The translations under genes were made by a program, and so were the position numbers. DNA of 42,893 nt, from positions 1-42,893 of the forward strand of contig MEDX01000024.1 of the NCBI GenBank assembly GCA_001724245.1. The letters run 5' to 3'. Under the pieces are notes generated by a model. The model saw only the letters and a program-made list of their open reading frames with translations. It did not search any database and had not been told where the DNA came from. Numbering within the stretch: position 1 is the stretch's first letter; the number at the start of each line of letters is the position of its first letter. Source of the stretch: Fonticula-like sp. SCN 57-25 (taxonomy: Eukaryota). Shown piece by piece: positions 1 to 42,693 of this stretch.

Positions 1-1116
1 ATCAAGGCGCTCGAGTTGAGTGAGCAGGCGGTGCCGCCAGAGCTCGTGGAGCTCGCAAACGGTACGGAAAATCTATTTGATATGTGCATTGGCGCTAACA
101 TGTGCGTTTTTGTGTATTTGATTTGGTTTTTGCCCTGCTTCGTGTTGTTTTTCAATGGTTTTTATCTATTTTTCGTGTTCTTCTTCTCTTGTTTTCCGCT
201 GTTTTCCATCCTTTTATGTGTGTTCCCCCTCTTTTCTCCCCCCACAGACTTCCGCGAACAAGTCCAGCAGGGCGCTGCCAAGCACCACGGCTCCGGCTTT
301 GGCGGCAAGGGCCTCGAGCGCATCGAGTGGGGCCGCGCGTCCGTCATCCAGAACCAGATGAAGGAATTCGTCGACGAGGAGACTGGCGAGCGGTCCGGCC
401 AGGCCGACGCCGCCGCGCGCGCAGAGGAGCTCGCTGCCAAGATCATCCGCGGCATCCAGCGCGACAAGGAAGGGTCGCCCGCGCCGACCGCCGCCGCCGC
501 CGACAATGCCGCTTTGCCCGGCACGCCGCCGGTCGAGCCCGCGTCGGGGTCTTCTGCTCCGTCTGCGCCGTCTGCGGCGCCGTCGGCTGCGGATCTTGCC
601 AAGGCGGCGGTGCTCGCCAAGCTGAATGCGATTAACCAAGAGGCGCTTCGCGAGGCGGCGACGCGCGGCAAAGGCCCGCTGCCCGCCGGCCTCGCGCGCA
701 CCGCCTCGCCCGCGCTCGCCGCCGGCGCCGCCGTCCCGCAGGGCGTTGTCGTGCAGGCGCCCGCCGGCAGCACGACCGCGCCGTTCTTTGCCGAGCTTGA
801 GATCAATGACTTTCCGCAGGCGGCGCGCTGGAAGGTCACGAGCAAGGAGAGCATCTCGCAGCTCACAGAGGACACGGGCGCGTCGCTCACCACGCGCGGC
901 ACGTTTGTGCCGCAGGGCGGCAAGCTCAAGGACGGGCAGCGGAAGCTGTTTTTGGTTATTGAGGGGTCGAGCGAGCAGATCGTGCAGCACGCGCTCGAGG
1001 AGGTGAAGCGGCTGCTGACAGAGGGTACGGTGCAGGCGATCGAGCGGGGGCAGATTCAGACGTCGCAGGCGCCGGGTGGAAAGTACCAGGTGCTCTCGCT
1101 CGAGTACAAGAGGTGA
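1..1116 (+). CDS. DDX46: DEAD-box splicing helicase Prp5/DDX46, 3' part with C-terminal KH-like domain (5'-truncated)
   Basis: Spliced read IKALELSEQAVPPEL...GSGFGGKGL...ELEINDFPQAARWKVT...RGTF...RKLFLVIEG matches the Prp5/DDX46 C-terminus. Intron 62-247 (GTACGG..CAG). Confidence 0.9.
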   Translation: MKALELSEQAVPPELVELANGTENLFDMCIGANMCVFVYLIWFLPCFVLFFNGFYLFFVFFFSCFPLFSILLCVFPLFSPPTDFREQVQQGAAKHHGSGFGGKGLERIEWGRASVIQNQMKEFVDEETGERSGQADAAARAEELAAKIIRGIQRDKEGSPAPTAAAADNAALPGTPPVEPASGSSAPSAPSAAPSAADLAKAAVLAKLNAINQEALREAATRGKGPLPAGLARTASPALAAGAAVPQGVVVQAPAGSTTAPFFAELEINDFPQAARWKVTSKESISQLTEDTGASLTTRGTFVPQGGKLKDGQRKLFLVIEGSSEQIVQHALEEVKRLLTEGTVQAIERGQIQTSQAPGGKYQVLSLEYKR

Positions 1117-1353
1117 AAATGATGAAAATAATGTACCTTGATTATAAATGCATATCTGTTTCGCAGTGAAAATTGACAATGCTCAGAGTAAAAGCATCAT
1201 ATTACATGTATGTCGTTGCTGGCCGTACCAATATACGATACTTATACCTTCATGCAGCACACATAGCACTACTATACGCTTCACGCCTTGCACAGCATTG
1301 CACAGGGACCACTTCGATCAAAGATCAACAATCGTCCACGTGGCCGATGCAGG

Positions 1354-3262
1354 ATGGACAGGTTGCATGCCGACGAGGAGGAGGACGATGAGGTGGCCGT
1401 CAGCGAGGAGGTGCGCGCGTTTACCTGCGGAAAAGGCGGTTGAATGCATGCTAATGCTGGTTGTTTGGGTGGGTAGTATCCGATGATGGGATCGGTGCCG
1501 ACGGAAGGACCGCTCGGGTACCTCGAGTCGGACGAGGAGCGCGTACGTCGAATATGAACGTGTCACGGAATCGTTGCTAATCATACCCGCCAATGCTACA
1601 GAGAAAGAGGAAACGTTCGATAAATGTGACAGTACTACTGTCATATATCGGCAGCGTTGTGTTTAGCGTGACGCTGCCTTCTCTGGCGCTTTATCTCGCG
1701 TCGTTCTCGACCGAAATGGCCGTCGGCGCCGACAACTTTTTCGGCATCGTGATGGCGGTCTTTTCGCTTGGCCAGCTCGTCACAAGTCCCTTTGTCGGCT
1801 GGTGGTGCGCGTTCCATTCAGCTCTATTCATTCTTGCTAAGCGAGCTCCATTGCAGGTTTAACCGCTCGAGCGCGCGCGCTCCATTTATCCTATGCATGC
1901 TCCTGCTGATGGGAGGCAGCCTCCTGTACGCTCTCGCCCGTGATCCGTACACGGTGCTCGCGTCTCGCTTCATTGTCGGTTGCAGCTTCAGCGTCGTGAC
2001 CGTCGCGCTCGCGTACACGTCGCTTGCGACGACCGACGCCGAGCGGCCCGCCACCGTGTCGCTTCACTCGGCAGCGCAGGCGCTCGGCTTTGTGACCGGG
2101 CCCATCATTGGCGCCGCCATGTCACTCGTGGAGTTTAACGTCGGCTTGGTCGCCGTGAACCAGTTTACTGCGCCGGGCTTTATTTCGTGCGTGTTTGGCC
2201 TTGCTGGGCTGTGCGCGCTGGCGTTCTTTGACGAGTTCCGGCCTACGGCGGCGCCGCAGGGCGGCGTCGGAAGCCCGCGGTCGTTCCCGATCAATGAATA
2301 TTTTACGCCAAAACTCGCCGACGGAGCGTTCAAGCTGTATGAAAAGTGGTCATTGGCGGTCGTAATTGTTGTCTTTTTCATCATTTCAAACGTGTTTGCC
2401 GTGTTTGAGACGGTCGCCGCGCCGTTCCTGATCGACAACTATGGATTTGGCGTCCAGGAGATTGGGTTTTTCTTTTGCGGATGCGCCGCCATCGCAGTCT
2501 GTGGTACGCCATTGATACTCTATTGCGCGTTTTTGTTATGCTACTTTTTGTCTGAACGCTTTATCAGGTCTTGTTGCTAGTCGTCCGCTAGGCCGCCGCT
2601 TCCCAACGCGAGTTCTCCTCCTGCTGAGCACGGTGCTCCTCTCCGCCGGCCCCATTGGCCTCGCCGCGCTCGGCGTCGTTCCCGTTCCCCTCGCACGCTA
2701 CCTCTGCTTCTCCGCTGTCCTGTCGGCCGGCTTTCCCCTCTCGCAGAGTTTTTGCCTTTCTTTGGCCGCGCGCATCCTCGGCCCTACCTCGCAGGTCGCG
2801 CTGATGCGCTACGTCACGTCTGCCGGCAGCCTCGCGCGCGTGCTCGGCCCGCTCTGGGGCATGGCTCTGTTTGGCCTCGACGTAAGCGGCCGCGTCGTCT
2901 ACATTTCCCTCTTTGCCGTCGCGCTCGCCGCGCCGCTCCTCGTTGCCGCCGCGTGGCGCAAACTCGCCCCGAGCGCGGTCTACTTTCCGGCTGGGCCGAC
3001 ATCGGGGGACGACACCGGGCTCGGCGACGCTCTGCCGGACGACGACGAGGAGGACCTTGACATGCAGTACTCGGAGGACGAGGAAGACGCGGTCGAGGTG
3101 GACGTTGACGACGATGCCGGCGGCACGGGATCGGCATCGTCAACATCGCTCACGAGGATGTCACCCGCGGCGAGATTCGGCAGTGGCATCAGCGCAGGGA
3201 GGAGATCGCCCGCGCCTCCGTCGCCTCTGCGCCCGTCCACATGGAGTGTCAGCGAGACATGA
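1354..3262 (+). CDS. Major facilitator superfamily transporter (MFSD8/CLN7-like) with acidic C-terminal tail
   Basis: Five exons (introns start ~1411, 1543, 1805, 2504). Many TM segments, with motifs SRFIVG, ALGFVTGPIIG and GSLARVLGP. Confidence 0.85.
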
Positions 3263-3549: not shown

Positions 3550-5274
3550 ATGTCCCGCTCGAGGCGCCGGTTTGATGTTGTGGTGCTAGGCGCGACGGGT
3601 TACACCGGCCAGTTGGTCGCGCACTACCTCGCGCAGCGGTCGGGCATGAGCTCGGTTCGGTGCGCGCGCTTAACCGCGGATGAGGCGTCTCAAACAAGTG
3701 CTAACATGCGGATTACGCTTGCAGCTGGGCCATCGCCGGCCGTAATGCAAAGACGCTCGCGGATGTACGCGACGCCTGCGCGATCCTGAATAGCGAGCAT
3801 GTGTCGCTTCCTATTCTTACTATAAACGTCTCCAACACGAGGTGCGCGCTTTCTCTCTTTTCCTTTTCTCCCTTGATTTGCTGACTGGAGGTCAATCTTT
3901 GCACAGCTCGCTTGATGAGCTTGCTCGCTCGACGAGCGTGGTGATCAACTGCGCGGGCCCCTTTGCCGTCACTGGCGAGCCTGTCATCGGCGCGTGCATT
4001 CGCCACGGCGCGCACTACCTTGATCTCACTGGCGAGTGGCCGTACTGGGACACGATTGTGCGCAAGTACGATGCCGCCGCTCGCAAGGCCGGTGTTGCGG
4101 TCGTCCCCGCCTGCGGCCTCGACTGCATCCCGAGCGACCTCGCCGTCTTCCACGCCCTCTCCAGCGGACCGTCGGGCGTTGTCTCGGACGCTTCCTCTGT
4201 CGAATTCTTCTTTGACATGGACGTCAAGCCGTCAGCGGGCACTGTTAAATCGTGCGCGATTGCTCGACTGCTTACAGTAAAACTCACGGGGCTATTACAG
4301 CATCATTGGCATTATCAAGTCGCTGTCGCTGAGCAGCAATTTGGGCACGCTTGCCGCGTGGTACGGCCCCCTTTCGCTGTCGTCCATCAAGGGCGCCGTC
4401 CAGAGGTGCGTTCATTCTGCTGTTTTTCTTTTTTTTGACGCCCCTTGCAGCGTGATGAATGCCGGCACGACCATGCCGCGCGCACTTCCGCTTCCCCACT
4501 ACAACGCCGACTGCGGCGGCTGGGCGCTTCCCTTCTTTGGCCTCGAGACGCGCGTGATCCGCCGCTCGAGCGAGCGCCTGCACGTGCAGGATGACGAGTA
4601 CCCCGTCGGCTTCTCGCTCGGCCAGTATGTCGTCGTCAGGAAGCACGCGTGGCTCGCTGTGCCGCTGTACCTTCTCGCCATGTTTGTCCTGCTGCCGCTT
4701 TTCTATGTCTTTTTGCGCACCGTTCCGTTCGCCGAGCGCATTGCCTGCGCCGCAGTCGACTTTGCCATCGCCGACGGCGGCCCGACGCTCGCGCAGCGCG
4801 AGGCGGCCACCTTTGCCGTGAACGCCGTCGTCCGCGACGCCACCGGAAAGGTACGCGCCCGCAGCGTCGCAAAGTGCGACACGGACCCGGGCTACGGCAG
4901 CACGGCCAAGTGGATCGCCGAGATTGGCCTGATGCTCGCGGCGGACGCGGCGAGCGACAGCGGCGCCGCGGTTGCGGACGCTGACGAGGAGGAGGTGGAG
5001 GAGGCGGAGGTGGCCGCGCCGGGTCAGAAGCCGGTCACGCACAAGCAGAAGCGGCTCCAGCGCAAGCAGAAGAAGGGAACTGAAGGCAAGCACGCGCACG
5101 CGGGCGAAGATGGCGTCCTGCCTCTCTCGGAAAGGGTGCGTTTGTTTTGTCAATTTTAGCATGTCAACTAACAGGATTTCGTGCTAGGCGGGTGTTACGA
5201 CGACGGCGTGCGTCGGTGGAAAGAGGCTCTTTAGCCGCCTGCCAAACCTCAGCGTGTCGACTGCGTCGGCGTAA
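3550..5274 (+). CDS. Saccharopine dehydrogenase-like oxidoreductase (SCCPDH family)
   Basis: Rossmann motif FDVVVLGATGYTG, then WAIAGRN, VVINCAGPF, HYLDLTGE, CGLDCIPSDL and DPGYGSTA. Five introns. Alternative start at 3505. Confidence 0.88.
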
Positions 5275-5466: not shown

Positions 5467-7817
5467 TCAATGCATGGTAAACTTTTTCTTCGCGGCCTTT
5501 TTCGGCGTCTTCTTCTCCTCACCGTCGCTGTCGCTGTCGCCGTCGGCAGCCGCCTTTGTCTTTCTCCTGCGCTTCGAGTGCGACAGCGCGTCCAGCACGT
5601 CCTTCATGACGTCATCATTGTGCGCGGGCGCGGCGGGCGCCTCTGCCTCCTCCTCCTCCTCTTCCTTGGGCGCGGCCGCCGCGGCCGTCCTGTCGCGCTT
5701 GCGCCTCTGCTTGAAGAGCGACTCGATTTCGAGCGCGGACGTCGCGCTCTCCTCGGGCCGCTTTTCGCCGTCGAGCGTGAGCGCGCGCGCCGCCTCGTCG
5801 TCGTCGTCGGCCTTGGCGGGCTTGGCCTTCTTCCCTTTTGCCTTTGGCGTGGCGATGGCGCCGCCCGCTGACGAAAAGCCGAGCGCGGTCATGTTGTCGT
5901 CGCGCTCGGCGCGCAACTGCGCGATGGCGGCCTCGGCGGGCGTGCTGCCGGCCGGCACCGCCGCGTCGCCGCTGCCGATAATGTCGGCAAACATGTCCTT
6001 CTTGCGCGCGATGGAGCGCTCGCGGTCGACCCAGTCTTCGCGCTTGGCCTTGTACGCGTCGACCTTGCAGTTGCGCAGCGCAATGCGGCCGTACGTCGAG
6101 TCGCGGAGAATGCCTTCGCGGGCAAGCAGCTCCTCGGCAATGGTCTCGCGCATCGCAACGTCGGCGTGAAGCCAGGCGCTGTCGAGCGTGTGGCTGCCAA
6201 ACTTGTCCTGAGCAAGCTCGCCAAAGTGGCCCTTCAAAAGAGCAATCACGCGCTGCTTGAGGGGAAGCGACGCGGCAGAGGCGAGGCACGCCTCAATGAT
6301 GCGGCTGGCCGAGGCGTCCTTGCTCCAGCGGACGAGCTCGGTGGGGGCGCACGCGGCGAGGCTGTCGGCGACGACCTTGCACTCGGCCTCGGGGAAGCGC
6401 AGAAGGGCCTGGGCAATGAGCGAGCCAACGCGGGATGGTGGGGGGACGTCCTCGCGCAGTTGCTAGATGAGGCGTCAGTAACAAGAAGAAAGACCAAAAC
6501 ACTAAAAAAAATACGTACGTCAAATGGCGTCATGTAGGCGAGGAGTCGGACGAGCTGTTTGCGCTCGTGGTTGCCCTGGGCACGAAGCGCCTTGCAGACG
6601 AGCTGCAGGAGCGACTTGTGCTGCGCATGAACGCGCCACGCTGCGACGAGCATACTGAGCACGACGAGCCCCCGCTGGTTGTTCATGAGGCTGTCAAAGT
6701 GCGGCCTGAGTTCGTCGAGGATGAGCTCGAGGTGCTGCGGCCGCTTTGCCGAGCAGATGAGCGTCGACACGACGTGGTTTGCAAAGCGGTCCGTGACGAG
6801 CTGCGCGAGCTTGCCGCGGAAAACGGCCTGGAAGATGGCGAACCAGATCTCTGGCGGCGCCATTTCGACAATCTTTTCAAGCAGGTGGCTGCCGACCTCG
6901 TGGGACGCCATGGCGGCGAGCACGCCGGCCGACTCGTCGGCGAGCTGGCCATTGATGAGCGGGCCGAGAAGGCGGGCGAGCACCATGTCCAACAGCGACT
7001 TGCGCTTCTTGCCGACGACGAGGAAGAGCTGCACGAGCGAGCACGCCTTGTGGTCGCTGCACATGCCGTCGAGCTCCTCGTCCGTCGCATCCTCAATCAT
7101 GGCGGCGGCGAGGGCGTCAAGCTCGGCGCCAAAGGAGGCGGGGAGATTGGGGTCGGCGGGTGCCGGCTTGTCCGCCTCAGCAAGCAGGCGCGACGGAAGG
7201 TCAAGCTGGCGCGTGCGCGGTGCCATCGTGTCGACGTGAAGGCCGGCAAGAACATTGACGAGCGTGCGCATCACGGGGCCGCCGGTGGGGTCAAAGCACA
7301 GATCGTGGACCGAGGCGCGGAAAGCCTTGGACATTGACAGAAGGATGTTTTCAAAGCTGTCGGGAAGGTCAGTAATACCGGCCTCCATCTCGCGCGCGAT
7401 GGCTGCGGGGCACGCGCGCAGGAACGACTGAAGGACGTGCGAGCCGTTCACGTGGACCGACAGGGCAGCGAGGTCCTTCTCGAGGAGACGGCCCATGGAG
7501 CGCAGCTGCTCATCGGTCGAGTGAGAAAGAAGCTTCTGGACAACGCGGCTGCTCGTTCCTTCGCGGAACACGCCGGGCTTGTCGGCGATCTCGCGGAGTC
7601 CGTTGCCGACAAGCGCCTCGCGCTCGTCAGCGTCTAGCTCGGCCAACTTGGCATTGTCGAGGGATTCCGCAAGAGTGGTAAGATACTTGATAGTAGCCGC
7701 GTCCACGCGGGGAGCACGAGCAATTGATTCGCTATCGCCGCTATCGCGCCCCGCGCCGCCTTCGCTGCGGCCGCCACGACCGCCTCCGCGGCCCCCTCGA
7801 TGGCCGCCACGCTGCAT
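5467..7817 (-). CDS. NOP9: Nucleolar protein 9 (Pumilio-repeat 18S rRNA processing factor)
   Basis: N-terminal RGG, PUF-like repeats (SRVVQKLL, GSHVLQSFL, GSHLLEKIV, ANHVVS, FGSHTLD) and a basic/acidic tail. One intron at ~6465-6517 joins the two ORF-track pieces. Confidence 0.85.
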
Positions 7818-7924: not shown

Positions 7925-10900
7925 ATGCCGTTCTCGTACAAGGTACGGGCGCGAGCCCCGCGCGCTTTTCTCTGCACAGGAGATGTTTCTGACGCACTGG
8001 ACCGTGTTGCTTTGCTTAGTTTTCGAATTTGTGCGGAACCGTCTACAAGCGCGGCAATCTCGTGTTCACGCCCGATGGCAACCGTCTCTTGAGTCCGGTT
8101 GGCAATCGCGTCACCCTTTTCGACCTCGTACAGTGCGTGCACGCAGACCCACCCTGCCCTGTTGCTCAGTTGCCTGATGTGTTAATAGCAACAAGACTGT
8201 TACGCTCAATTTTGAAAATCGCAACAATATCGACTGCATCGCGCTGTCACCGAACGGCGCGATCCTCGTGTCAGTCGATGAGGGTGCGACCGCCTTGATG
8301 AGCACAAAGGTCTCTTGCTCACCTTTCCCACAGAGGGTCGCGCGCTTCTTGTCAACCTGAACCGCCGCGTCGTTCTTCACCACTTCAATTTCAAGGAAAA
8401 GGTTGATCATTTGGTATTCTCGCCCGACGGCCGGTACCTTGCCGCGACGCACGGCAAGCTTGTCCAGGTGTGGCGCGCGCCCGGCCTCCACCACGAGTTT
8501 GCTCCGTTTGTCATCCACCGCACGTATGGCGGTCATCACGCCGACGTGTTGCGGATCCAGTGGTCGCCAGACAGCCAGTACGTCGTCGCGTTCTGTATAT
8601 TACAGCCTCTGACGACGACCCTTTTTTAGGTATTTCCTCGCTTCGAGCAAGGATCTGAGCTGCCGCCTGTTCTCGCTTGATCCCGAGGAGGGCTTTTCGC
8701 CGTTCACCTTCACCGGCCACAAGGACTATGTGCTGGGCGCCTTCTTCTCGCGCGACCTCAAGCACATTTTTTCGGTGAGCCGCGACGGGGGCGTGTTTGT
8801 GTGGACCCCCGTGCCGCACGGCGCCAAGCGCGCGCGCGAGGATGATGATGAGGAGCCCTCTGATGAGCCGACGAAGCGCCGCCCCGCCGGCGTGTTTGCG
8901 AATGTGACGTGGACGCTGTCGCAGCGCCACTTTGTGAACCAGCCCTTTTCCAAGGTGACGTCGGTCGACTTTCACGTGCCTTCTGGCGTGCTCGCCGTCG
9001 GCCTCTCGACGGGCCTCTTTTGCCTCTACGAGCTGCCCGACTTTGCCGCCGTGCACACGCTGAGCATCTCGCAGCAGGCGGTGTCGTCCGTCTCGTTCAA
9101 CGCCGACGGCCAGTGGCTCGCGCTCGGCGTTCGCGGCGCCGGCCAGCTCATTGTCTGGGAGTGGCAGTCGGAGAGCTACGTGTTCCGCCAGCAGGGCCAC
9201 CTCTCGTCGCCGCCGACGTGCCTCGCGTACACGACCGACGGCGCGCACGTGGCGACCGGCGGCGCCGACGCCAAGATCAAGCTGTGGAGCACGCGCGACG
9301 CTTCGGCCGTCGTGACGTGGACAGAGCACTCGGCCGAGGTGACCGACCTCGCGTTCGCCAAGGGAGGCCAGGTGCTCTTTTCGTGCTCGCTGGACGGCAC
9401 GGTGCGCGCGTTCGACCTCGTTCGCTACCGCAACTTCCGCACATTTGTCGCGCCGTCATCTGTTCAGTTCAACTGCATTGCTGTTGATCAGAGCGGTGAG
9501 ATTGTCTGCGCTGGGTCGCGCGATACGTACGACGTGTACGTCTGGAACGTCCAGAACGGGAGGCTGCTCGATGTGCTCTCGGGGCACCAGGGGCCGATCG
9601 TGAGCATTGTCTTTTCGCCGTCGGAGCCAAGCGTCATCGCCACCGGCTCGTGGGACAAGACGTGCGTCTTTTGTTGTGGCTTTTTTGGCCTTGTTTTTGA
9701 CCTATTTTTTTTTATTTCCCCTTTTACTAACCCTTTTCCCTCAGTGTTCGCTTCTGGGATGTGTTTAGCGGCGTTCGTTCGCGCGATGTTCTCGCGCACT
9801 CTTCCGACGTTCTCGGCGTTGCGTACCGCCCCGACGGCGAGCAGCTTGCCGTCGCCACGCTCGACGGCTCCATCTCGCTGTGGGACACGCGCGAGGGCAC
9901 GCAGACGGGCTCTATTGAGGGCCGCAAGGACATTTCTGGCGGCCGCAGTGCCGCCGACCGTGTGAGCGCCGCCAACAACCCGGCGTCAAAGTACTTTACG
10001 TCGCTGTGCTACTCTGCCGACGGGCGGTGCCTGCTCGCGAGCGGCGCCTCTCGCTGGGTCTGTATTTATGACGTACGTATAGCGTTTTTTGTGCCTTTTC
10101 CGTGCCATTTTCTGACCGTCGTTTTCGCAGGCCGGTACGAGGAGCCTTCTTCGCAAGTACCAGCTGAGCAAGAACCGCTCTCTTGACGGCGTCGTTGACC
10201 AGCTCAACTCGAAGCAGCTGACGGACGCCGGCCCGCTCGAGCTGATTGACGACGACGAGGACTCTGCCGACGAGGAAGAGTCGCGCATGCGCCGCAACAA
10301 GTCGCTGCCCGGCGCGCAGGGCGCCGACTTTTCGTCGCGCCGCGTTCGCCCGACGGTGCGCTCGTACGGCGTCCGCTTCTCGCCGACGAACCGCTCCTTT
10401 GCGGCGGCGGCCACTGAAGGTCTTTTGATCTACTCAATGGACGACGACCTTGTGTTTGACCCGACCGACCTTGACCTCGACGTGACGCCCGACAACGTGC
10501 GCATGCTGCTGAGCCAGGGCGACTATCTGCGCGCGCTCGTCATGGCGGTGCGTCTCAACGAGGACGAGCTCATCGCCCTCGCGTACGCCGCCACGCCCGC
10601 CGAGAGCATCGAGCTCGTTTCGCGCTCGTTCCCCGACGGCTACGTCGTCCGCCTCATCACGTTCATTGCCGCGCACTGGGACGCGTCGCCGCACGTCGAG
10701 TTCCAGCTCTTGTGGGTGCGCGCGCTGCTGCGCCTGCACGGTGCCAAGCTGCGCGCCGCGCTCGCCACAATGTCGGCCACGCTCCCGTCGCTCAGGTCGC
10801 TCCACCGCGCCATCCTCGCCAATACAGAGACGCTCACAAAGGTGACCGACGACAACGTGTACCTTACACAGTACTTGTTGATGTCGTCGCGTCGCCCGGC

Positions 10901-12026: not shown

Positions 12027-12306
12027 CGTTGAGACTGTTAAAAGTGGCCGCCAGTACGGTACATGTGTAGAAAAGTGTTTCCATAATGGATAATTTTAAT
12101 AATAATGCATTTATGACTGCCTTATTGACACACTCATGAAAGTGTTCAGTATCACATTCTGCGGCTAATAATATGATATATTCATACAGGATAACGTGAT
12201 GAGCTATCCACGGGCACGAGAAAAAGGGTACAAAATGGCAAGGTAATCATAAAAATCATAATAATATTTGGCGAGCGCACAAATGAAACGTCTCTCCGTT
12301 TGCGTC

Positions 12307-30018: not shown

Positions 30019-30060
30019 ACCAATCAGGACAGTCTTGTCAAAAGAATGCACCAATCAGGA
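30019..30060 (+). promoter_or_regulatory. Tandem CCAAT boxes upstream of RapGAP gene
   Basis: ACCAATCAGGA at 30019 and 30050 (31 bp apart), about 150-190 bp before the ATG at 30213. Confidence 0.55.
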
Positions 30061-30212
30061 TTCGCTTTAGACACAAACAACGCGCGGCCAAACAACGTTT
30101 TGGACGCGGTCGTCGTCGAGGTAGAGCATCCCGCAGGCGGGTGTACTTTTCTTGCCGATCGTTCAGTTCAAGCGCGAGTAGGCACGCGAAACCTACTGCA
30201 GCTCGCGTAAGG

Positions 30213-33857: not shown

Positions 33858-34795
33858 TCAGATGCGGGCGAGGATCCAGTCGCGGTACCCGCCGATGACC
33901 TCCTCCTTACCGATCTCGTTGTGCAGCTCGTGCCGATAGTCCTCGTAGCTCTTGTATTCCTTGTCGGCCGCGGCGACCTTGCCGAAAAACTCCTTGGACG
34001 CGGCGGAGCTCGTGAGCGTGTCGACGGTGCCGTGCGCCATGAGCATCGGCTTAGTGAACTCGTCGCCGACGAGCGTCTTGCCGGTGGTCAGTACGTAGTT
34101 GGCCGACCGCAGCGAAATGTAGCCGTGCACAAGGGGGTCCTTCTTGTAGTCCACCGCAACCTGCGGGTCGCGGCTGAGGAACTCGAGATCGAGGTCGTTC
34201 GCGACAGTAACGCGGTTAATGAATGGGACGACGGCGAGCAGCTTGCCGACAGCCACCTTGACGGCGTTCGGCTCGAACCCGACGCCGACAGCGGGCGCCG
34301 ACGCGATGAGGCCGGTAAAGTCGAGGCCGCTGCGGATGGACACAACGAGCGCGTTCAGGCCACCGAGGCTGTGGCCAAACTGGAGAACGATGTCAGATCG
34401 TGGGGGATGCCAGAGAGGGGCGTACGAAAAAGATCGGGACGGATTCAAAGCCCTTGCGCGCAATGTCGTAGACAAACTTAGAGTCGGCGAGGATGACGCT
34501 CTCGTCGCCGGCGTCGCCGCGCGTGCCGCTCGAGCGACCGTGACCGCGAAGGTCAAACGCCGTCACACGGACGCCGGCCTCGCTAAAGACCGAAAACACA
34601 TGCTTGTACCGGTTGCAGTGCTCGCCCAGACTACCAGGAACAGTAAGAGATCACGTAATAATTAAGGGCGAGACAGTACCCGTGGAAAGCAAGAAGGACC
34701 GCCTTGGGCGCCTCCGCCGTCGCCCACGTTTTCACATAGATCGACGCGCCGTCCGCGGTGTGGTGGAGCTCGCCGCCGTCCAGATCGGCCGCCAT
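33858..34795 (-). CDS. Monoacylglycerol lipase / lysophospholipase (alpha/beta hydrolase)
   Basis: FHGLGEH, DLRGHGRS, nucleophile GHSLGG, HGTVD and RHELHNE. Two introns. Confidence 0.9.
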
Positions 34796-34871: not shown

Positions 34872-36334
34872 ATGGCGGGCGCGGCGGGATCGGCCCGCGT
34901 GAGCGCCCAGCTGGGCGGCGAGGGGGTGGCGTTTGCGGGGGATCTGCTGACGTGCCATGTCACTGTTGAGGGTGTCGGCGCGGCGCTTACGCTTGGGCGA
35001 GGCCTTGCCCAGGTGGTGGGCCATGCGGTGTTTGACACGTCGGTGCGTGTTTTACGCCGTGCTCGCCGAGTGCTGACAGCCGTGTTACGGTAGCTTTTAA
35101 AGGAGAGCGCCTTTGTGAATATACCGATAGATGTGCGGACGGGCGACACTCTCCGGTCGTCTGACCGGTCCGCGTGCTTCTTTGCCACCCTGCCGGTCAC
35201 GATCTTTGACAGCCTCGTCGTCCTGCCGAGCCACCAACACCAATGTACGCCTGCCATCGCCCCTCGCCTACGCTAATGCGGCACGCACAGACACATTCAA
35301 GGCGGTTCTTCCAAGCACACTACCGCCGTCGCATCGCGGCCGCGCGCTACGGATATCCTACCGCGTCGTCATCACGGTTCACCGGGATGGCGCCAAGCCC
35401 GATGTGTTGATGGCGCCGTTCCGGCTGCTTCAAGCCGTCGCGGACAACGGCGCTACGCACGTCTTTGACTTTAAGACGCCGTGCCTTTTATCGTCGCAGT
35501 CGTGCATTGCATTTTCGCAGGACGAGTACACGCAGCGGCAAAAGCTGATGCAGCTACGCCTGGCCAACCCAGCGGCCGCGGCGCGCGTCCTTCGCAGCCC
35601 GGCATCGGAGGCCCCCGATGTACACGATCTCTTGCCGACCTTCAAGCCGCTCGCCACCCTCAACAATGTCAATTATATCGTCCAGAACGCCAGCGGGCAC
35701 CGTACGCCACGGCATATTTTGATGCCTGTACTTATTATGGCCGGCAGGCGTGTACAACATTTCGGCGCCCGACGGAACAGAAGTCGCGCGTCTCCTACTG
35801 ACGCACTCGTGCGTGCGCCTTGGCGACGTCTTTTCGTGCGTTGTTGCATTCACGTACGGCGCGCCGTGCGTGCATCTGTCGGTCTTTCTCGAGAGCGCCG
35901 AGGCGGCCGCGAGCGAGGAGGTGGCCGCCCGCACGGGCGACGCCGTCGCGCGACTCGGGCGGCAGGTCGCGTCACAGCACCACGAGCTCACGCCAAACGC
36001 GCGCGAAGTGGCCGCCGTGCTCGCCGTCCCGGTCCAGGCGAGCACGTCCTTTGAGACGTCGGCCGGTGCGCCCTCTTTTTATCTTTTGCAGATTTGCTAA
36101 CACATCCTACGTGCAGTCAAGCTGTCGTGGTCCGTGCGCGTCGAGATCGCCACTGCGCGCGGGGGCGTGCTGCAGCAGACAGCGGTGCAGCCGGAGGGCG
36201 CCGTCACGCGGTTCGCGCCGTCGACGAACGCCGACATCTTTTCGTGCTCGGCGCCAATCACTGTGCTTCCGACGAGCCCAGAGAACGCGCGCATCGGGCC
36301 GTCGATGCGCGAAATTACAATTGCATCCGCCTGA
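34872..36334 (+). CDS. RGP1: RGP1-like subunit of the Ric1-Rgp1 Rab6 GEF (arrestin fold)
   Basis: VAFAGDLLTCHVTV, LPSTLPPSHRGRALRISY, SFETS..KLSWSVRVE, FSCSAPITVLP. Four introns. Confidence 0.75.
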
Positions 36335-36409: not shown

Positions 36410-37116
36410 CTACTCGTCGTCTTGGCTCAAATCTTCGTCGTCGTCCTCGCCATCGTCGGCGCCCACGTCGCCGGCGTCGTCGGGTATTACGCTCTCTTCC
36501 TCTGCCTTTTGTGGCTCGGCCGATGACGATGCCGACGCCACCGATGCCTTTGGCAATGACACGCGCGACATCTGCAACGTCATCACCTGCTCGTCGTCCT
36601 CCTCTTCGCTGTCGTCGTCGTCCTCCTCGCCCTCCTTGGCCCCGGTCGTTGTCTTGCGGATATACGTGCGACGCACGCGCTCGCTCATGCCGCTGACCAT
36701 GCGGTCCTCTTCGTCGGCGAGCGCCTGCAGCTGCGCGGGCGTCAACGGATCCCTGAGTTGCGCAGCAGGTTAGCACACCACATAGAAGAGCGAAACGCGT
36801 ACTTTGAGACCACGTCACGCTCCAAAAGACACTTGGCGCAGACCTTCTTGCTCTTGGCGCACGGGTCGCATACCACGTGGTACGCCTTGTTGATTGTCTT
36901 TTGTTCGCACCAGACGCACTTTTTGAGCGACGTGAGGGGCTTGTACTTGCGGTACTGCTTGCGCCACTCAAGCGTCGCGTGGCAGCGCTGGCAGAGGCCA
37001 GAGATCGGCGATGCCAGAATGGCCGCCGTCTTGGAACTCTTCGGGTTGTGCTTCCACGCAGTCTTGTTCTGGTGAGCGGGCGCTCCGCGAGTCACTCCGC
37101 CGCGACGAGAGCTCAT
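36410..37116 (-). CDS. C9orf85/DUF2039-like zinc-finger protein with acidic tail
   Basis: HQNKTAWKHN, GLCQRCHATLEWRKQYRKYKPL, CVWC..AYHVVCDPCA..VCAKC. Intron 36753-36802. Confidence 0.85.
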
Positions 37117-37240: not shown

Positions 37241-37649
37241 ATGACGTGGCGGGGGATCGCGGCGGCCGTCCTGCTGCTGCTCCTGGCGGCGCATGTGGAG
37301 GCAGCAGGGGTGCGCGCGCCATGACGCATGCTGTAGCCTTGCGTCTTACACCCACTTAGAAACAACCAGAGTTTAAAACGCGTGAACATGCTTGCAAGAC
37401 CGAGTGCAGCGTTCGAGTGACTTTCGATGCCACCGCTGAGCAGCTCAACTGCCTCAAGCGCTGCATTTCAGACGAATGCTATGAGAAGGTGTACGCCGAA
37501 GACCCGGTACGCTTGGAGATCATGTTTGCTTGCGTCGCTTTTAGCTTATTTGGAGTTCTGGTCAGCTGGAGGTAGGAGAAATCGATGACCGCCTTGTAGA
37601 GTTTAAAAAGTGCTTCACCAACCTTGACCGCAACAAGGCACGCGCCTGA
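37241..37649 (+). CDS. Small secreted Cys-rich protein (DUF4787-like), absent from the ORF track
   Basis: Signal peptide MTWRGIAAAVLLLLLAAHVEA, then spliced CLKRCISDECYEKVYAEDP|LEVGEIDDRLVEFKKCF. Introns 37310-37359 and ~37507-37565. Confidence 0.75.
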
Positions 37650-37825
37650 CCGCATTTCACCACAAGCATTGTTATCTGTATTTGTATCGCAAGTCTTTTT
37701 TTGTTTAGCACGCCAATTTTAGTCATATCGCACTCTTTGTTGTTTCATCCGTGACCCGGTCAACGTCGGCCGATGATGACGCCATACCTGTCCCACAGAT
37801 CCCTGGACGCGCATCCAACCGCACG

Positions 37826-39414
37826 ATGTCTGCAGCGCGAAAGCGCATACTTTTCCTTCTCGTAGTGGCTGCCCTCTCTTTATGGTATTACTTTCCGCGG
37901 CATCGCGTCGTGCTCGTGGTCGAGGTACAAGATTGCAAGGCTGGCTGGAACGAGGCGTTTTCCTCCTTTGGCGCCCTGCCCGACCGCTTTGTCCACGTCG
38001 TAATGGTACAGTGGGCGGCCTGTGGCGGCTATACGCAGCGCCCCGCGAACCGCGTCACCACCATGCGGATGCCTGCGTCCATACGCGACACGTGGGCTAC
38101 CCGCGCGTTCATCCTGTCGCACATCAAATGCCCGCCTGGTGCCACTGTGATCTTTATGAAGGGTGACGGCCACACGCAGCAACACATTGCGTCCACCTTT
38201 TCTGACCCGGTCCACCTCACGAAACGGTACTCGGCTTCGGGAGCTGACGTGGCCGCCCTCGTCGGCTCGGTGCGCGCGACCCGCCTATCGTTGCTTGCGC
38301 TGACGTTGGACAAAAGTCGCTCAATATCGACTATTCGGAGGCCAATGTTGCACGGATGGTCGCATCGGCCGTGCCGCCCGGCTCCTGCCGATCTGTGGAC
38401 GCATTTTCACCCGAGCAGGCGGCCGTGACCGTCCTCTCGTCAGACCATCTCCTCAGCAGCCCGCCGGCGCCGCGCTCAGGATGGGCGCCGCTCCTTCTCC
38501 GTTCGGCGGTCGTATGCGCCTCTCCTGACACCGGCATTGCTGCTCCTCAGCCTCAGCTGCCCGACATCCACGCGGCCACCGAGGCGCTCGCGCGCTGGTG
38601 CGACCGGCAGGGCGGCCGCGTGTGGGCGCTCGAGGCGCCGCCGACCGGCCTGTCATTGTACTGCCGCTATGGCCGCGTCTGCCCGTCACCGCCTCCGACG
38701 CCCCCGGCGCGCCGCCGCGACTGCGCCTTGTGGCGACCAGACGAGCTCGGCACGCGAGCGACGGCGCTTTCCCGTGCGACGGCGCTCGGCCTCGCACGCG
38801 ACGCTTCTGCGCCATATCTGTTCATTGCGGTTCGCAGCGCAGCTTCGCGCGGCTATATGCGCGCCGCCGCTAGCGAGACGTGGATTGCAGAGGGCAAGGC
38901 GACGCTTGACGGCCAGTGGGCGGCCAAGTTTTTTGTCTGCGCGCGCCGTGCGGATACCGCACTGCGGGAGGAGGCGAACCGCGAAGGCGACCTCGTGCTG
39001 CTCGACTGCGACGGTGGCAGCGAGCGGCAGCGCATCTATGACTGGATCGGACAGCACGCGCCGTTCCCGATGGTAGCGAGCGTGCCGGACAGCGCGTACG
39101 TCAGCGTCGAGCGGCTTGTTGAGGGGCTCAACCTGCATGGCGGCACTACTGACGTGCTTATCGGCTTCGACGACGACTGCCGCTCGGACAACGTGGCCCT
39201 GTCGCGCGACTTTGCTCTGCTTCTCAGTGAGGTGGCAGCGGGAGGCGACACTGTGGGCTCGCTGATTGCGCGCTACGCGGGGCACACGGAGGGCGGGCGA
39301 CAGGTGCCGGTCGCCCAGAGAGGATGCCCTGTGGGTGACAACGCAATCGCGTTCGATGTCGCGGACCTTCGACACGCTCACCGATATCAGCATGACGCGG
39401 CGGCTCGCTGCTAA
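37826..39414 (+). CDS. Type II membrane protein with degenerate GT31 (beta-1,3-galactosyltransferase-like) C-terminal domain
   Basis: Signal anchor, then LFIAVRSA..MRAAASETW..KFFV..LREEANREGDLVLLD. Phase-0 intron 38270-38316 joins the two ORFs. Confidence 0.65.
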
Positions 39415-39848
39415 TACAGCCCTTTGTATCTTAGCCTCTTTCCTACACATCAAATATAGATCGCCATGATCATGCACATCGTCCTCTGCCCGCCCCAAAC
39501 TCTGTACCTGCATTGAAGACAATGTCTAGACTCGAAAACGATTGGCTTGCTCCAGTGGATCGCACCAATGGAAAGCCAGATCGCCTATTGCGTGAGCCAA
39601 TCGTATAATTTACTGGCTTCTTTTCCAACCTTGAAAGCATCAGCGACATTGTTTGCACGTTGCGGCAAGTGAAGACGTCGGCAGGCCGACCATCGGATTC
39701 GATTTTTGGAGGAACCCGGCGTAGTCGAGCGGGTAGAGAAAGAGCGGTTATACCGGTTTGTGGCTGGGGAGCTCTTGCTGGACGCCTTGAAAGTACATTT
39801 TTTGTAGCTTGGAATTCCTCTTTACGGCTGGTTCGGTCAAGGGCAAAA

Positions 39849-40609
39849 TGACGTTTTCGCCGCCCACGAGCGCCCTTGATTTTAGCGAGCGCTTTGAGCG
39901 CGTCGCGGCAGAGGTAATGCCTCTTGATGCTTTTTTTCCAAAACTGGCCAGCAGCAGCTCGAGCGTGACGGACCGGAGAAAGGTCCGTGGCTCGCGACCA
40001 ATGACGCAGGAGGAGCGTCGAAGCGCAACGTTGGCCGCGTGCGTCCGCTCGCGAAAAAATGCCGCCGTGACGCGCAATGTTTTTGTGGAAATTGTCAAGC
40101 CCGCCCCTCTTATTGACGCGTTCCTTCGGACGTGCACTGCTCATGAGCGAGCGCGCGTTGGCCGCATTGCTTTTACCCTTCTTGTCAAGGTCGGCCTCAT
40201 CGACTGCCCGTACGCCGATGAGCTGATGCTGGACTCGTATGCGCGCGAGGCGGTGCGCCCCGGCCCCGACGGGCGGCTTCAAATTCGCGACTTTGAGATT
40301 CTCCCCATCCACGCGGCCGGTCTGGAGAGCGCGAGCAATTTGCGCAATGGCCAGAAGGACCTCTTCCTTCGGCAGATCGCGTGCGTCCGCCTCAACGATC
40401 CCGGAGGTGACCGCGGCCGCTACAACTTTACCCTCGGCGCCCTGGAGGAGCACGTGCCCGAGGTGAGGCGCGCCATCACATACGGGCTGCACGTTGTCCG
40501 CGGCTGCAAGCTTTCCGTTGACAACGAGGTTTTCAGCCTCCACGATTTTGAGCGGGAGATGCTCGCTGACGCGACGCCAGTGTGCGCGCCCAGGAATGTC
40601 CTGTTGTAG
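39849..40609 (+). CDS. Hypothetical protein (5' end uncertain)
   Basis: About 253-codon ORF with the host-like GC3 bias. No recognisable domain. Confidence 0.5.
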
Positions 40610-40931
40610 CGAGCGCGGGTCGCCCACCAACAACGCACTCGGTACAAGCATTCTCACTCTAGATAGCATTGCATCTTTTTATCCTGGTCTCTTCGCCACC
40701 GGCGCGTGGCCGCCTTATTGACCTTTCATATCCCACACACGTTTCTGCGACCCTATAATATTGCAATATTTTTTTGAATACATGTTGCCTACCGCCATTC
40801 CATTCCGCCACTTGTCCATTTTAAAACGCGCTAGTGCCTTGTAAGAGCGGCACTTTGTCTGTGCTTTGCATTTCACTTGCGTTTCCCGCGCAAGAGCCCA
40901 CTTGCAGCAGTTTACACGCTCAGTTTGCACC

Positions 40932-42693
40932 ATGTCGGCCGCCTGGCTGGTCACGTGTGTTCGGCGGACGGGGCGGCTGGCCGCCACCCGCGCGGTGAGC
41001 ACGCTGGCAGGCGCCGGTGCGCCGCTTTTACCTGTGCATGTCTATGTCGCTAACCGCACTGTGCCACCTAGATGCCCAGCATTTGTCGGCCAAGTACAAT
41101 GTCACGGTCGATGACGCATGCAACATCCCGCAATCGCTTCTGGCCAAGGTGGGCCGTGATCTGCACCGCCAGCCTCGGCATCCGCTCAACACGATCAAGG
41201 TGCTCATTGAGACTGCGCTGCAGAAGCACGCAAAGCTAGAGGCTGAGTCGCCGTACAAGGTGTTTGACGCGCTCCCGCCGTTCGTGTCGACAAAGGACAA
41301 CTTTGACGATCTCCTGACGCCGGCCGATCACGTCAGCCGGCGGCCCACCGACACGTACTACGCCAACCGCGGCACGGTGCTGCGCACGCACACGTCCGCG
41401 CACCAGTCGCAGCTCTACCGCGCCCGAGAGGTGCGAATCCTTGCCGCGCACACTTGCCCTAATGATGATGTTCAGAGGTCGTTTGTCGTGGCCGCCGACG
41501 TGTACCGCCGCGACGAGATCGACAGCTCGCACTACCCGGCCTTCCACCAAATGGAGGGCGTCCGCCTCTTTGACGCCGAAAAGGTACATGCTGGCGGCCT
41601 GCGGCGGGACCGCATCGGCGACACTGGCCCCCACGAAGAGTCCGTCTTTCGTTCCTGTGAATCATACTCATGTGTGCGTATAGGCAAGCGGCCATTCAGC
41701 CGGCACACTCGGTGCAAATTGCGTCTTTTGTGGAGCGTCACCTCAAGAACACTTTGAATTTTTTGCTGGAAGAGCTCTTTCACGGTCGCTACCCTGTACG
41801 TCTCTTTTGTTCGGTACCCGCTGGCGTGTTTTGTATATGCGTGGGCATTTGCTGTGTATGTATTGAGTGAATACTTGTGTGTGTATGTGTGTACGTTTAT
41901 ATATGTGTTTGTGTGTCTGCGCACTTGCTTTGTGTGTATATTCTGCTCTATTTCCTTCCCTTCCCTCGCCCCGTATCTAATCCTCTCGCCAGATCCGCTG
42001 GATCGATGCCGAGTTCCCCTTCACACGCAGCTCGTGGGAAGTCGAAATCGAGCACGCGCCCGGCGAGTGGATGGAAGTCCTCGGCTGCGGCGTCATCCAG
42101 CAGCAGATCCTCGACCACAACGGCTGTGAGGACCAGGTGGGCTGGGCATTTGGCCTCGGCCTCGAGCGCCTCGCTATGCTCCTCTTTGAGATCCCCGACA
42201 TCCGCCTCTTCTGGAGCGAGGTGCGTCGCCTTGTACTGCTGACACTTGGCTGACTTTTCGTATCAGGACCCGCGGTTCATCAGCCAGTTTGAGGAGGGAA
42301 AGATCGTCAAGTTTGCCCCGTACTCGCGCTTCCCCGCCTGCTACAAGGACATTACCTTTTGGCACCCGCCGCAAGGCATCCACGAGAACGACTTTTTCGA
42401 GCTCGTGCGTTCCGTCGGCGGCGACCTCGTCGAGAACGTCAAGCTGGTACGCCTTTAAGCGCTTGCCTGCCATTGCTAAGCGTGTGACAGATTGACAGGT
42501 TTGAGCACAAGACAAAGGGCGTCAGCACTTGCTACCGCATCCTCTACCGCTCCATGGACAGGTGCGCGGCGGTTCACAAGCGTATCCTTTCTAACTAGCA
42601 TTGAATAGGTCGCTCACGAATGAGGAGATTAATGTGCTGCAGCAGGCCGTCCGCGACAAGGCAAGCGCCGAGCTCGCCTGCGTGCTTCGCTAG
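40932..42693 (+). CDS. FARS2: Mitochondrial phenylalanyl-tRNA synthetase
   Basis: [59 protein letters not shown] and an FDX-ACB tail. Seven introns. Confidence 0.95.

Follow-up and report, generated by a model that had tools for sequence, protein, structure and literature searches.

The 42,893-nt stretch of contig MEDX01000024.1 (hereafter, the window) has a G+C content of 59.5% and carries tightly packed eukaryotic genes on both strands. A total of 22 gene models were recognized in 43 kb, about 1.9 kb per gene, and a 23rd starts at position 42838. Nineteen of the 22 models are interrupted, with 70 introns in all (about 3.2 per gene); the window is nuclear DNA of a GC-rich, gene-dense, intron-rich eukaryote. 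We analyzed the 5' splice sites (donors) of these introns, which were predicted from genomic sequence, reading frame and homologue alignment (Table 1). Ordinary U2-type GT-AG introns here have the 5' splice-site consensus G/GURCGY (the slash marks the exon–intron boundary; R, A or G; Y, C or T/U), with an almost invariable C at the fourth intron position (+4).

At +4, C was counted 68 times and T twice, while A and G were absent (binomial p = 3e-39 for 68/70 against the C frequency of 0.244 in intron bodies). Position +5 was G in 68 introns, C in one, T in one and A in none. Position +3 was A in 36, G in 31, T in two and C in one; position +6 was C in 38, T in 23, G in five and A in four; position −1 was G in 39 of the 70. 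The form GTRCGY accounted for 57 donors (GTGCGC, 20; GTACGC, 17; GTACGT, 11; GTGCGT, 9). GTACGG occurred three times, GTGCGA and GTACGA twice each, and GTTCGT, GTCCGT, GTACCG, GTACTG, GTATGT and GTTTGC once each. Donors deviating at +3 or +5 retain C at +4, and only GTATGT and GTTTGC lack it. The preference was seen across all 19 intron-bearing genes, and none of the 93 occurrences of GTRAG on both strands stands at an intron start. Within the window, the donor pattern is statistically overwhelming and is neither a compositional nor an annotation artefact.

These counts bear out the initial annotation of the window, which had claimed C at +4 in all but two of about 70 coding introns, A in none, GTGCGC, GTACGC, GTACGT or GTGCGT in most donors, and GTATGT in the CNDP2 gene and GTTTGC in the PIWI gene as the exceptions. 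Exactly these two were found, at 19090 (minus strand) and 21005. All eight donors it gave as examples of GTRCGY read GTRCG; the complete hexamer is present in six (GTGCGC at 1411, 11267, 22124, 37310 and 38270; GTGCGT at 4406), and +6 is not a pyrimidine at 62 (GTACGG) and 41431 (GTGCGA).

The remaining splicing signals were of the usual kind. GT and AG ends were present in 70 of 70 introns, with CAG (38), TAG (31) or AAG (1) as the 3' trinucleotide. A putative branch motif, CTRAY, was found within the last 50 nt of 48 introns, mostly 10–22 nt from the 3' end. The U12-type donor [AG]TATCC was found in 0 of the 70 introns.

The introns were predicted with a dynamic-programming gene finder blind to the donor: it combined a coding model of period three, derived from long open frames, with a flat T-rich intron model, used only GT and AG as signals and was given no information on positions +3 to +6. 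On the first pass, GTRCG was present in 34 of 64 introns of genes scoring ≥30 and, after resolution of strand overlaps, in at least 31 of 61 (counted from the 12 commonest hexamers listed). In the background, 303 of 4,798 GT sites on both strands (6.3%) continue with RCG, and 31% have C at +4; the donor-blind enrichment of GTRCG was about 8-fold (binomial p = 2e-21 for 31/61 versus 6.3%). The share of GTRCG rose upon self-training of the finder. With a penalty of 10 log units on other donors, the finder retained GTATGT (19090) and GTTTGC (21005), where no alternative exists; therefore, true exceptions are detectable.

Discordant predictions were curated by reading three-frame displays, the curator being aware of the motif. 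Most non-consensus predictions either joined neighbouring genes over a stop codon or set the donor a few bases too far inside the GC-rich motif, which the coding model took for exon. Frame reading rejected false introns merging neighbouring genes at 1113-1352, 25449-25860, 28148/28136-27745, 40580-40907, 41644-41992, 12319-11952, 18743-18472, 12019-12189 and 20594-20510, as well as a predicted 40-nt intron at 1615. By the same means, slid donors were replaced: 1419 by 1411, 1811 by 1805, 2501 or 2466 by 2504, 3801 or 3765 by 3842, 4231 by 4252, 8590 by 8578 and 10058 by 10073. Introns 22124-22174 and 41431-41475, being in frame and without stops, escaped the finder. Four introns were added on extending genes to upstream ATGs: 30247 and 30428 in the Rap-GAP gene, and 35043 and 35245 in the Rgp1 gene, where the Pfam match of a later exon begins at profile position 297 of 415 and upstream exons were therefore expected. 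The M28 peptidase gene may have a further intron at its 5' end (17192-17095, minus strand; donor GTCCTG with C at +4 and T at +5), which was left uncounted, since a downstream ATG makes it unnecessary.

All 19 spliced models have open frames. Retention would break the frame by a stop or a frameshift for 65 of the 70 introns, 63 of which have C at +4; the other five (62-247, 4406-4450, 22124-22174, 32918-32989 and 41431-41475) are multiples of three without an in-frame stop.

Spliced translations were built from the coordinates and aligned to homologous proteins. Nineteen donors were fixed in this way by gapless alignment, independently of the motif: 18 with C at +4 and one GTATGT. In PWP2, all six junctions were confirmed, five of them gapless directly; acceptor 9768 left a nine-residue gap against homologues, and acceptor 9744, with donor 9662 unchanged, was gapless. 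All six junctions of the CNDP2-like gene were gapless, the GTATGT exception included. For the organellar-type phenylalanyl-tRNA synthetase (PheRS), five of seven junctions were confirmed, including the in-frame intron 41431, the other two lying in the presequence and a variable loop. In the PIWI gene, two of four were confirmed, including the in-frame intron 22124, and the other two lie in the unconserved RG-rich N-terminus.

The introns are short: 44–259 nt, with a median of 53, a mean of 68 and a typical range of 45–75 nt. In 30.4 kb of coding sequence, 52 sense-strand copies of GTRCGY were counted versus 48.6 ± 4.6 expected from synonymous shuffles. The hexamer is thus not depleted in exons, and its unused copies are about as many as the real donors that carry it (57). 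Being as common in exons as at donors, it cannot define an intron alone; recognition must therefore draw on the donor together with the T-rich body, the branch site and the short length of the intron. The pattern fits intron definition, in which the T-rich body, branch site and length would actually be used for recognition; the exonic copies suggest that real donors are told apart largely by the T-rich body and the branch site.

A metagenome scan with the PIWI protein of the window gave 11 loci, and introns in the PIWI gene were present only in L007, L008 and L010/L011. The gene at L007:1744-4659, on an AT-rich metagenome contig (31.6% GC) of the closest genomic relative found (64% PIWI identity), had seven introns, with GTAATC, GTATTT, GTATAT, GTATGC, GTTAGT, GTATAC and GTTTTT as donors and C at +4 in 0 of 7. 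L008 had one PIWI intron, with donor GTTTTT. Donors at L010/L011 (54–55% GC, 46% identity) were GTATGA, GTACAC and GTACAG, and the two with C at +4, both of L010, have A at +5. Thus, no GTRCG donor was found in the PIWI genes of these intron-bearing relatives. Since GURCGY is not common to the nearest relatives reached, it would have arisen within the window's own lineage, and the +4C trait appears to be lineage-specific. For L007 and for the two window exceptions, T at +4 would fit an ancestral GUAU-like donor, with the thin support of seven introns of one gene.

Introns of L007 occupy the positions of window introns 21357 and 22124 and have the donors GTAATC and GTATAC, respectively; the positions were kept and the donor changed.

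The trait is not new in kind. Introns of Ostreococcus lucimarinus outside chromosome 2 have an "atypical consensus GTGCGTG" and the branch site GACTGACG, and the question whether small nuclear RNA (snRNA) changes complement this donor was raised in the same source, as its accessible text reads (Irimia & Roy 2008, PMC2483917). The view of the initial annotation that near-fixation of C at +4 is unusual is thereby corrected. For their U1 search, Roy & Bowser 2022 relaxed the model at the positions that pair (bioRxiv 10.1101/2022.06.08.495308). According to the accessible text of that preprint, Mastigamoeba balamuthi prefers GUGCGC and has a U1 candidate with ACGUAC (Watson–Crick at +4, wobble at +3, +6C unpaired); five Mamiellales with "GYGCGY" donors have a standard U1, as does the apusomonad Thecamonas trahens, with C preferred at the fourth intronic position; yeasts, with +4U donors, show no complementary U1 change; and Entamoeba has GUUUGUU donors with U1 AACAAAC. 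Massive intron loss is stated there for five of six "transformed" lineages. A 5' splice-site preference has been linked to METTL16 and SNRNP27K (Parker et al. 2023, eLife, PMC10581693); the terms "SS+4C", "cytosine", "GUACGU" and "GUGCG" are absent from the main text of that article. In the running text of the literature, no GTRCGY-like consensus was found beyond Irimia & Roy 2008 and Roy & Bowser 2022.

The window donors are a further example of the described +4C "transformed donor" class (Mamiellales, M. balamuthi, T. trahens): strong C at +4 together with G at +5 was found, in 68 of 70 introns each. The association with massive intron loss does not extend to the window, where 19 of 22 genes are interrupted; of the systems in the available text, it resembles only Mastigamoeba in this respect. 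The interest of the trait lies in the intron-rich setting and in its possibly representing a fourth independent lineage. None of the three lineages is a clean match for the window, whose source would be an aerobic, GC-rich protist with a compact genome, probably close to the opisthokonts; should it prove to be one of the species already described, the trait is known.

Mastigamoeba balamuthi is similar to the window in favouring GUGCGC, in a +6C that pairs with neither U1 variant, in a G+C content of about 60% and in intron richness (3.4 introns per gene and 60.7% GC; Zarsky et al. 2021, PMC8136499). As far as that article is accessible, the window differs in being denser (about 1.9 versus 3.5 kb per gene) and in having shorter introns (mean 68 versus 137 nt). 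Among named proteins, those closest to the window's PIWI and PWP2 come from animals and fungi, not Amoebozoa. A further difference is the window's PheRS, a single-chain enzyme of organellar type that carries a presequence at its N-terminus; M. balamuthi has hydrogenosome-like organelles without a genome, and such an enzyme would therefore be unexpected there.

Mamiellales, from the accessible descriptions, share with the window near-fixed +4C and +5G, a CTGAC-type branch motif (ACTGAC there), a GC-rich compact genome and U2-type GT-AG introns. However, their genomes are intron-poor and +3 is mostly G, whereas in the window A and G at +3 are about equal. In addition, the window has a PIWI-clade protein (47% identity to animals) and proteins nearest to opisthokonts, and is not that of a green alga. 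Thecamonas trahens, compared by description only, also has +4C and common canonical branch motifs but is counted in the available text among the massive-intron-loss lineages, unlike the intron-rich window. T. trahens is a free-living lineage next to the opisthokonts. This apusomonad placement agrees with the window proteins, whose affinities are partly with animals and partly with fungi. Saccharomycotina, with GUAUGU, likewise have a pyrimidine at +4 in nearly all introns and offer, in the text available, a framework for +4 being read at the U6 ACAGA box; +4 is U there versus C in the window. A U at +4 can pair with the central A of ACAGA, whereas a C cannot. Entamoeba has a near-universal atypical donor lineage-wide and, from the accessible account, shows that the U1 pairing sequence can co-evolve; its motif, however, has U at +3 and +4, and its genomes are AT-rich and intron-poor.

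On the cis side, the window has a selected GURCGY donor within an intron-definition architecture; for the trans side, we infer a mechanism from the systems above. The best explanation, and probably the right one, is a selected, lineage-specific GURCGY donor of the +4C class with a standard U1, C being imposed after the U1 stage. U1 would keep the standard ACUUAC, as in two of the three known +4C lineages, and because of this precedent we give the mechanism about an even chance. Position +4 would be unpaired at the U1 stage, like the budding-yeast +4U. The preference for C would then be imposed after the hand-off, once +4 faces the ACAGA box of U6 at its central A, together with the surrounding proteins of the tri-snRNP (small nuclear ribonucleoprotein complex). 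One specific version, an altered N6-methyladenosine (m6A) state of that central A through METTL16, seems improbable. A compensatory G opposite +4 in U1 or U6, or loss or alteration of METTL16, SNRNP27K or U1C, proposed in the initial annotation, are reasonable as mechanisms and were partly anticipated in print. METTL16, SNRNP27K and U1C were not found among the window's 22 gene models (Pfam on the largest exon per gene), and no snRNA genes were found in the window (Rfam, at the gathering threshold and at E ≤ 1).

Several points weigh against this explanation. Its mechanistic half is drawn from other lineages. If both U1 (ACUUAC) and U6 (ACAGA) are standard, a C at +4 finds a pairing base in neither, and 97% C with 0% A would lack a simple physical cause. 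The more economical explanation would be a Mastigamoeba-like G in U1; Mastigamoeba is also the only intron-rich +4C lineage described in the accessible text, it has a changed U1 (bioRxiv 10.1101/2022.06.08.495308), and the window is intron-rich too. As for the counts, three introns (62, 4406 and 32918) are supported by motif, branch site and composition only. The motif swayed the choice at three further sites: 13339 (GTTCGT over GTGGTT at 13342), 31303 (GTACCG over GTTTAA at 31280) and 41640 (GTCCGT), the last with a fixed frame but in a variable region. The sample is 70 introns of one 43-kb stretch, predicted from DNA. With all ambiguous cases counted against the claim, the share of C at +4 still exceeds 90%.

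It is possible, although we doubt it, that U1 itself has co-evolved and carries G opposite +4 (ACGUAC for ACUUAC). GUACGU would then pair perfectly, GUGCGY would pair by way of a G-U wobble at +3, and Watson–Crick pairing would select for C at +4. The commonest window donor, GTGCGC (20/70), is the preferred donor of M. balamuthi with its U1 ACGUAC (bioRxiv 10.1101/2022.06.08.495308), and the two resemble each other in intron richness and base composition (3.4 introns per gene and 60.7% GC versus about 3.2 and 59.5%; PMC8136499), as far as the accessible texts tell. A purine at +3 matches what U in U1 tolerates, and the absence of +4A from 70 donors is hard to explain with the standard U opposite +4. 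Furthermore, G at −1 accompanies G at +3 in 23 of 31 donors versus 14 of 36 with A at +3 (Fisher p = 0.006, one of three pairwise tests), suggesting that U1 pairing strength matters; the other two tests on the 70 donors were not significant (+3 versus +6, p = 0.59; −1 versus +6, p = 0.12). This seesaw may be the compensation expected if U1 pairing in the usual register still matters; as a slight indication of conventional pairing with U1, it also speaks for the standard-U1 explanation. However, in the available text of the preprint (bioRxiv 10.1101/2022.06.08.495308), a standard U1 is reported for two of the three +4C lineages. A G in U1 would also allow +4U by wobble, yet U is found at +4 in 2 of 70 donors, while +6 takes both C and U, and more than half of the donors have C at +6, which pairs with neither U1 variant. 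The probability left over between the standard U1 and the G in U1 is assigned to mechanisms not yet imagined.

A broader possibility, which we regard as speculative and rather unlikely, is that the window represents a fourth +4C lineage, not described before. Its source would be an intron-rich protist with aerobic metabolism, placed near the opisthokonts, in which GURCGY was fixed independently in thousands of introns and a core snRNA co-evolved (G in U1, or a change of the U6 ACAGA box or its m6A). If true, this would be the second independent case of co-evolution between a core snRNA and the splice site in an intron-rich genome, where every intron must follow. At position +4, recognition is handed over from U1 to U6, and the identity of this position has recently been linked to m6A on U6 (METTL16) and to the flexibility of splicing. 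Lineages with near-universal +4C are rare natural experiments; three are described in the available literature, only one of them with a matching U1 change, and for the other two the available text offers no explanation. An intron-rich genome with 97% C and 0% A at +4 sharpens the question of what reads +4C; a second question is how an exon-like donor is told from 52 unused exonic copies.

It is very improbable that composition or mutation bias produced the pattern, i.e., that the spliceosome needs only GURYGY, that GC-biased mutation or gene conversion has turned Y into C and R into G, and that selection does not act on C at +4 itself. The genome is GC-rich, every change from a GUAUGU-like ancestor would be a transition, L007 with its 31.6% GC uses GTAT-type donors, and both window exceptions have T at +4. 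However, the GC richness is that of exons (63.9%; about 0.8 at third codon positions of long open reading frames (ORFs)) versus 43.7% GC and 41% T in introns, and the intron bodies (+7 to −4) are T-rich (A 0.154, C 0.244, G 0.193, T 0.408; GC 0.437). The C:T ratio at +4, 68:2, differs from 38:23 at +6 (Fisher p = 2e-7) and from about 0.6:1 in the intron body (Fisher p = 4e-26). Fixation of +4 cannot come from a bias under which +3 (A 36:G 31) and +6 stay near parity. The C at +4 is thus maintained as such; it is held by selection, not composition, and the suspicion, raised with the initial annotation, that it merely tracks intron composition is answered in the negative.

The GC-rich donor hexamer sits at the exon/intron edge and is itself exon-like in composition.

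An annotation artefact, with a circular consensus obtained by picking GTRCG by eye or by a self-trained model, is hardly tenable. The motif was known when the final models were curated, it was used in three in-frame choices, and the donor-blind finder took other GTs in about half of the cases. However, that finder picked GTRCG 8 times above chance and its other picks were mostly errors, 19 donors were fixed by gapless alignment irrespective of the motif, and GTATGT and GTTTGC were kept under the 10-log-unit penalty. Least credible of all is an introner-like spread of one intron family carrying its own GTRCGY donor, with uniformity from intron descent: introner invasions are recorded in Micromonas, a +4C lineage (accessible text of bioRxiv 10.1101/2022.06.08.495308), and the window introns are short and of similar length, but all-versus-all blastn of the 70 introns found none alike beyond T-rich low-complexity runs (≤15 exact bases, or 28 bases at 86%), and two PIWI introns share positions with those of a 64%-identical relative, with different donors, and are therefore old.

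Table 1. Introns of the window, with donor hexamer and donor position, and the basis of each prediction (required, retention gives a stop or a frameshift; gapless, gapless alignment to homologues)
Intron	Strand	Donor (position)	Length (nt)	Gene	Basis and remarks
62-247	+	GTACGG (62)	186	KH_12-domain gene (3' part)	in frame, open if retained; motif, branch site and composition only
1411-1476	+	GTGCGC (1411)	66	gene 1354-3262	required
1543-1601	+	GTACGT (1543)	59	gene 1354-3262	required
1805-1856	+	GTGCGC (1805)	52	gene 1354-3262	required
2504-2567	+	GTACGC (2504)	64	gene 1354-3262	required; in-frame alternative acceptor 2591
3660-3724	+	GTGCGC (3660)	65	gene 3550-5274	required
3842-3906	+	GTGCGC (3842)	65	gene 3550-5274	required
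4252-4300	+	GTGCGC (4252)	49	gene 3550-5274	required
4406-4450	+	GTGCGT (4406)	45	gene 3550-5274	in frame, open if retained; motif, branch site and composition only
5136-5187	+	GTGCGT (5136)	52	gene 3550-5274	required
6463-6518	-	GTACGT (6518)	56	NOP9-like PUF gene (Pfam PUF_NOP9)	required
7943-8019	+	GTACGG (7943)	77	PWP2	gapless, 6 homologues; required
8133-8188	+	GTGCGT (8133)	56	PWP2	gapless; required
8284-8333	+	GTGCGA (8284)	50	PWP2	gapless; required
8578-8629	+	GTACGT (8578)	52	PWP2	gapless; required
9662-9744	+	GTGCGT (9662)	83	PWP2	gapless with acceptor 9744
10073-10130	+	GTACGT (10073)	58	PWP2	gapless; required
11267-11312	+	GTGCGC (11267)	46	PAPS_reduct-domain gene	required
11666-11730	+	GTGCGC (11666)	65	PAPS_reduct-domain gene	required
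13296-13339	-	GTTCGT (13339)	44	gene 13460-12307	required; choice over in-frame GTGGTT at 13342 rests on motif
13089-13137	-	GTACGC (13137)	49	gene 13460-12307	required
12791-12844	-	GTGCGT (12844)	54	gene 13460-12307	required
12652-12698	-	GTACGT (12698)	47	gene 13460-12307	required
16187-16326	-	GTACGT (16326)	140	M28 peptidase gene	required
15571-15642	-	GTACGC (15642)	72	M28 peptidase gene	required
15278-15348	-	GTACGT (15348)	71	M28 peptidase gene	required
15046-15095	-	GTGCGC (15095)	50	M28 peptidase gene	required
14824-14954	-	GTACGC (14954)	131	M28 peptidase gene	required
14393-14586	-	GTACGC (14586)	194	M28 peptidase gene	required
17796-17865	+	GTGCGC (17796)	70	HATPase_c gene	required
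20248-20313	-	GTACGT (20313)	66	M20 dipeptidase (CNDP2-like)	gapless, 9 homologues; required
19874-19924	-	GTGCGT (19924)	51	CNDP2-like	gapless
19738-19783	-	GTACGC (19783)	46	CNDP2-like	gapless
19463-19515	-	GTACGC (19515)	53	CNDP2-like	gapless
19035-19090	-	GTATGT (19090)	56	CNDP2-like	exception (+4 T); gapless; sole GT at boundary
18875-18924	-	GTACGC (18924)	50	CNDP2-like	gapless, 8 of 9 homologues; ninth with divergent tail
20870-20921	+	GTGCGC (20870)	52	PIWI	required; in unconserved N-terminal region
21005-21082	+	GTTTGC (21005)	78	PIWI	exception (+4 T); stops in all three frames; sole in-frame alternative, GTGGCT at 20996, also without +4C
21357-21411	+	GTGCGC (21357)	55	PIWI	gapless; position common with L007 intron
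22124-22174	+	GTGCGC (22124)	51	PIWI	in frame, open; its 17 residues missing in 9 of 9 homologues; position common with L007 intron
27640-27715	-	GTGCGC (27715)	76	Vps5-like gene	required
27411-27553	-	GTACGA (27553)	143	Vps5-like gene	required
27247-27296	-	GTGCGC (27296)	50	Vps5-like gene	required
27053-27105	-	GTACGA (27105)	53	Vps5-like gene	required
26577-26835	-	GTACGT (26835)	259	Vps5-like gene	required
30247-30308	+	GTACGC (30247)	62	Rap-GAP gene (upstream exon)	frame from ATG 30213 open only if removed
30428-30480	+	GTACGC (30428)	53	Rap-GAP gene (upstream exon)	frame open only if removed
31303-31346	+	GTACCG (31303)	44	Rap-GAP gene	+5 C; required; choice over GTTTAA 31280/acceptor 31335 rests on branch site and motif
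31494-31539	+	GTGCGC (31494)	46	Rap-GAP gene	required
31633-31684	+	GTACGG (31633)	52	Rap-GAP gene	required
32328-32440	+	GTGCGT (32328)	113	Rap-GAP gene	required
32918-32989	+	GTACGT (32918)	72	Rap-GAP gene	in frame, open if retained; motif, branch site and composition only
33108-33160	+	GTACGC (33108)	53	Rap-GAP gene	required
34631-34679	-	GTACTG (34679)	49	Hydrolase_4 gene	+5 T; required; sole GT at boundary
34380-34425	-	GTACGC (34425)	46	Hydrolase_4 gene	required
35043-35093	+	GTGCGT (35043)	51	Rgp1 gene	frame from ATG 34872 open only if removed
35245-35290	+	GTACGC (35245)	46	Rgp1 gene	frame open only if removed
35702-35747	+	GTACGC (35702)	46	Rgp1 gene	required
36066-36116	+	GTGCGC (36066)	51	Rgp1 gene	required
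36753-36802	-	GTACGC (36802)	50	gene 37116-36410	required
37310-37359	+	GTGCGC (37310)	50	DUF4787 gene	required
37507-37565	+	GTACGC (37507)	59	DUF4787 gene	required
38270-38316	+	GTGCGC (38270)	47	gene 37826-39414	required; AAG acceptor, in-frame alternative 38343
41017-41071	+	GTGCGC (41017)	55	organellar-type PheRS	required; in presequence region
41431-41475	+	GTGCGA (41431)	45	PheRS	in frame, open; its 15 residues missing in 6 full-length homologues
41640-41683	+	GTCCGT (41640)	44	PheRS	+3 C; required; frame fixed by conserved downstream exon; donor in variable region
41796-41992	+	GTACGT (41796)	197	PheRS	junction agrees with homologues
42221-42266	+	GTGCGT (42221)	46	PheRS	gapless
42447-42490	+	GTACGC (42447)	44	PheRS	gapless
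42562-42608	+	GTGCGC (42562)	47	PheRS	gapless

The AAG acceptor of intron 38270-38316 stands 12 nt after CTGAC and is the sole non-YAG acceptor of the 70; its in-frame alternative at 38343 is GAG. The in-frame acceptor pairs 38316/38343 and 2567/2591 could be alternative 3' splice sites. A mir-9461 match in Rfam at 27384-27466 (minus strand), within the 143-nt intron of the Vps5-like gene, scored 28.9 bits versus the gathering threshold of 84 (E = 0.025) and is probably due to chance.

With Pfam, run on the largest exon per gene, the following domains were identified: KH_12 (gene ending at 1116), PUF_NOP9, PAPS_reduct, Peptidase_M28, HATPase_c, M20_dimer, Vps5, Rap-GAP_dimer, Hydrolase_4, Rgp1, DUF4787 and tRNA-synt_2d; one gene gave weak matches to Zn_clus and PAS_3. 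The names PWP2 and CNDP2-like come from named database matches and alignment to unnamed representatives. The assignment of PheRS to the organellar type is based on the mitochondrial names of its matches, the single-chain architecture with PF03147 in homologues and a presequence-like N-terminal stretch. From their sequence motifs, the first gene may be the C-terminus of DDX46/Prp5, gene 1354-3262 a transporter and gene 3550-5274 saccharopine-dehydrogenase-like. PWP2 is nearest to fungi (49–55% identity), and matches of the PheRS exon are of mixed origin. The PIWI-clade gene (20710-23579) is complete, with an RG-rich N-terminus, and its homologues carry Piwi_N, PAZ and Piwi domains; the protein has 47% identity to animal PIWIs and 53–62% to unnamed environmental proteins. 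It stands head to head with the CNDP2-like gene.

Stretches without a gene model (23600-24240, 25460-26020, 29115-30212 and 39415-40000) may contain untranslated regions, introns of these or small genes. An ORF on the minus strand (39473-40678) overlaps the gene model 40001-40609 on the plus strand.

Such genomes are prone to wrong annotation, both by gene finders whose training donors are of the GTAAGT type and by ORF callers of the prokaryotic style, which read through the five in-frame, stop-free introns; two matching database proteins carry translated introns. The PIWI database protein P0002 is 100% identical to the unspliced exon translation and includes the translated intron. Fragment P0242, from another public assembly, is 98% identical to the PheRS exon and represents an ORF call reading through introns.

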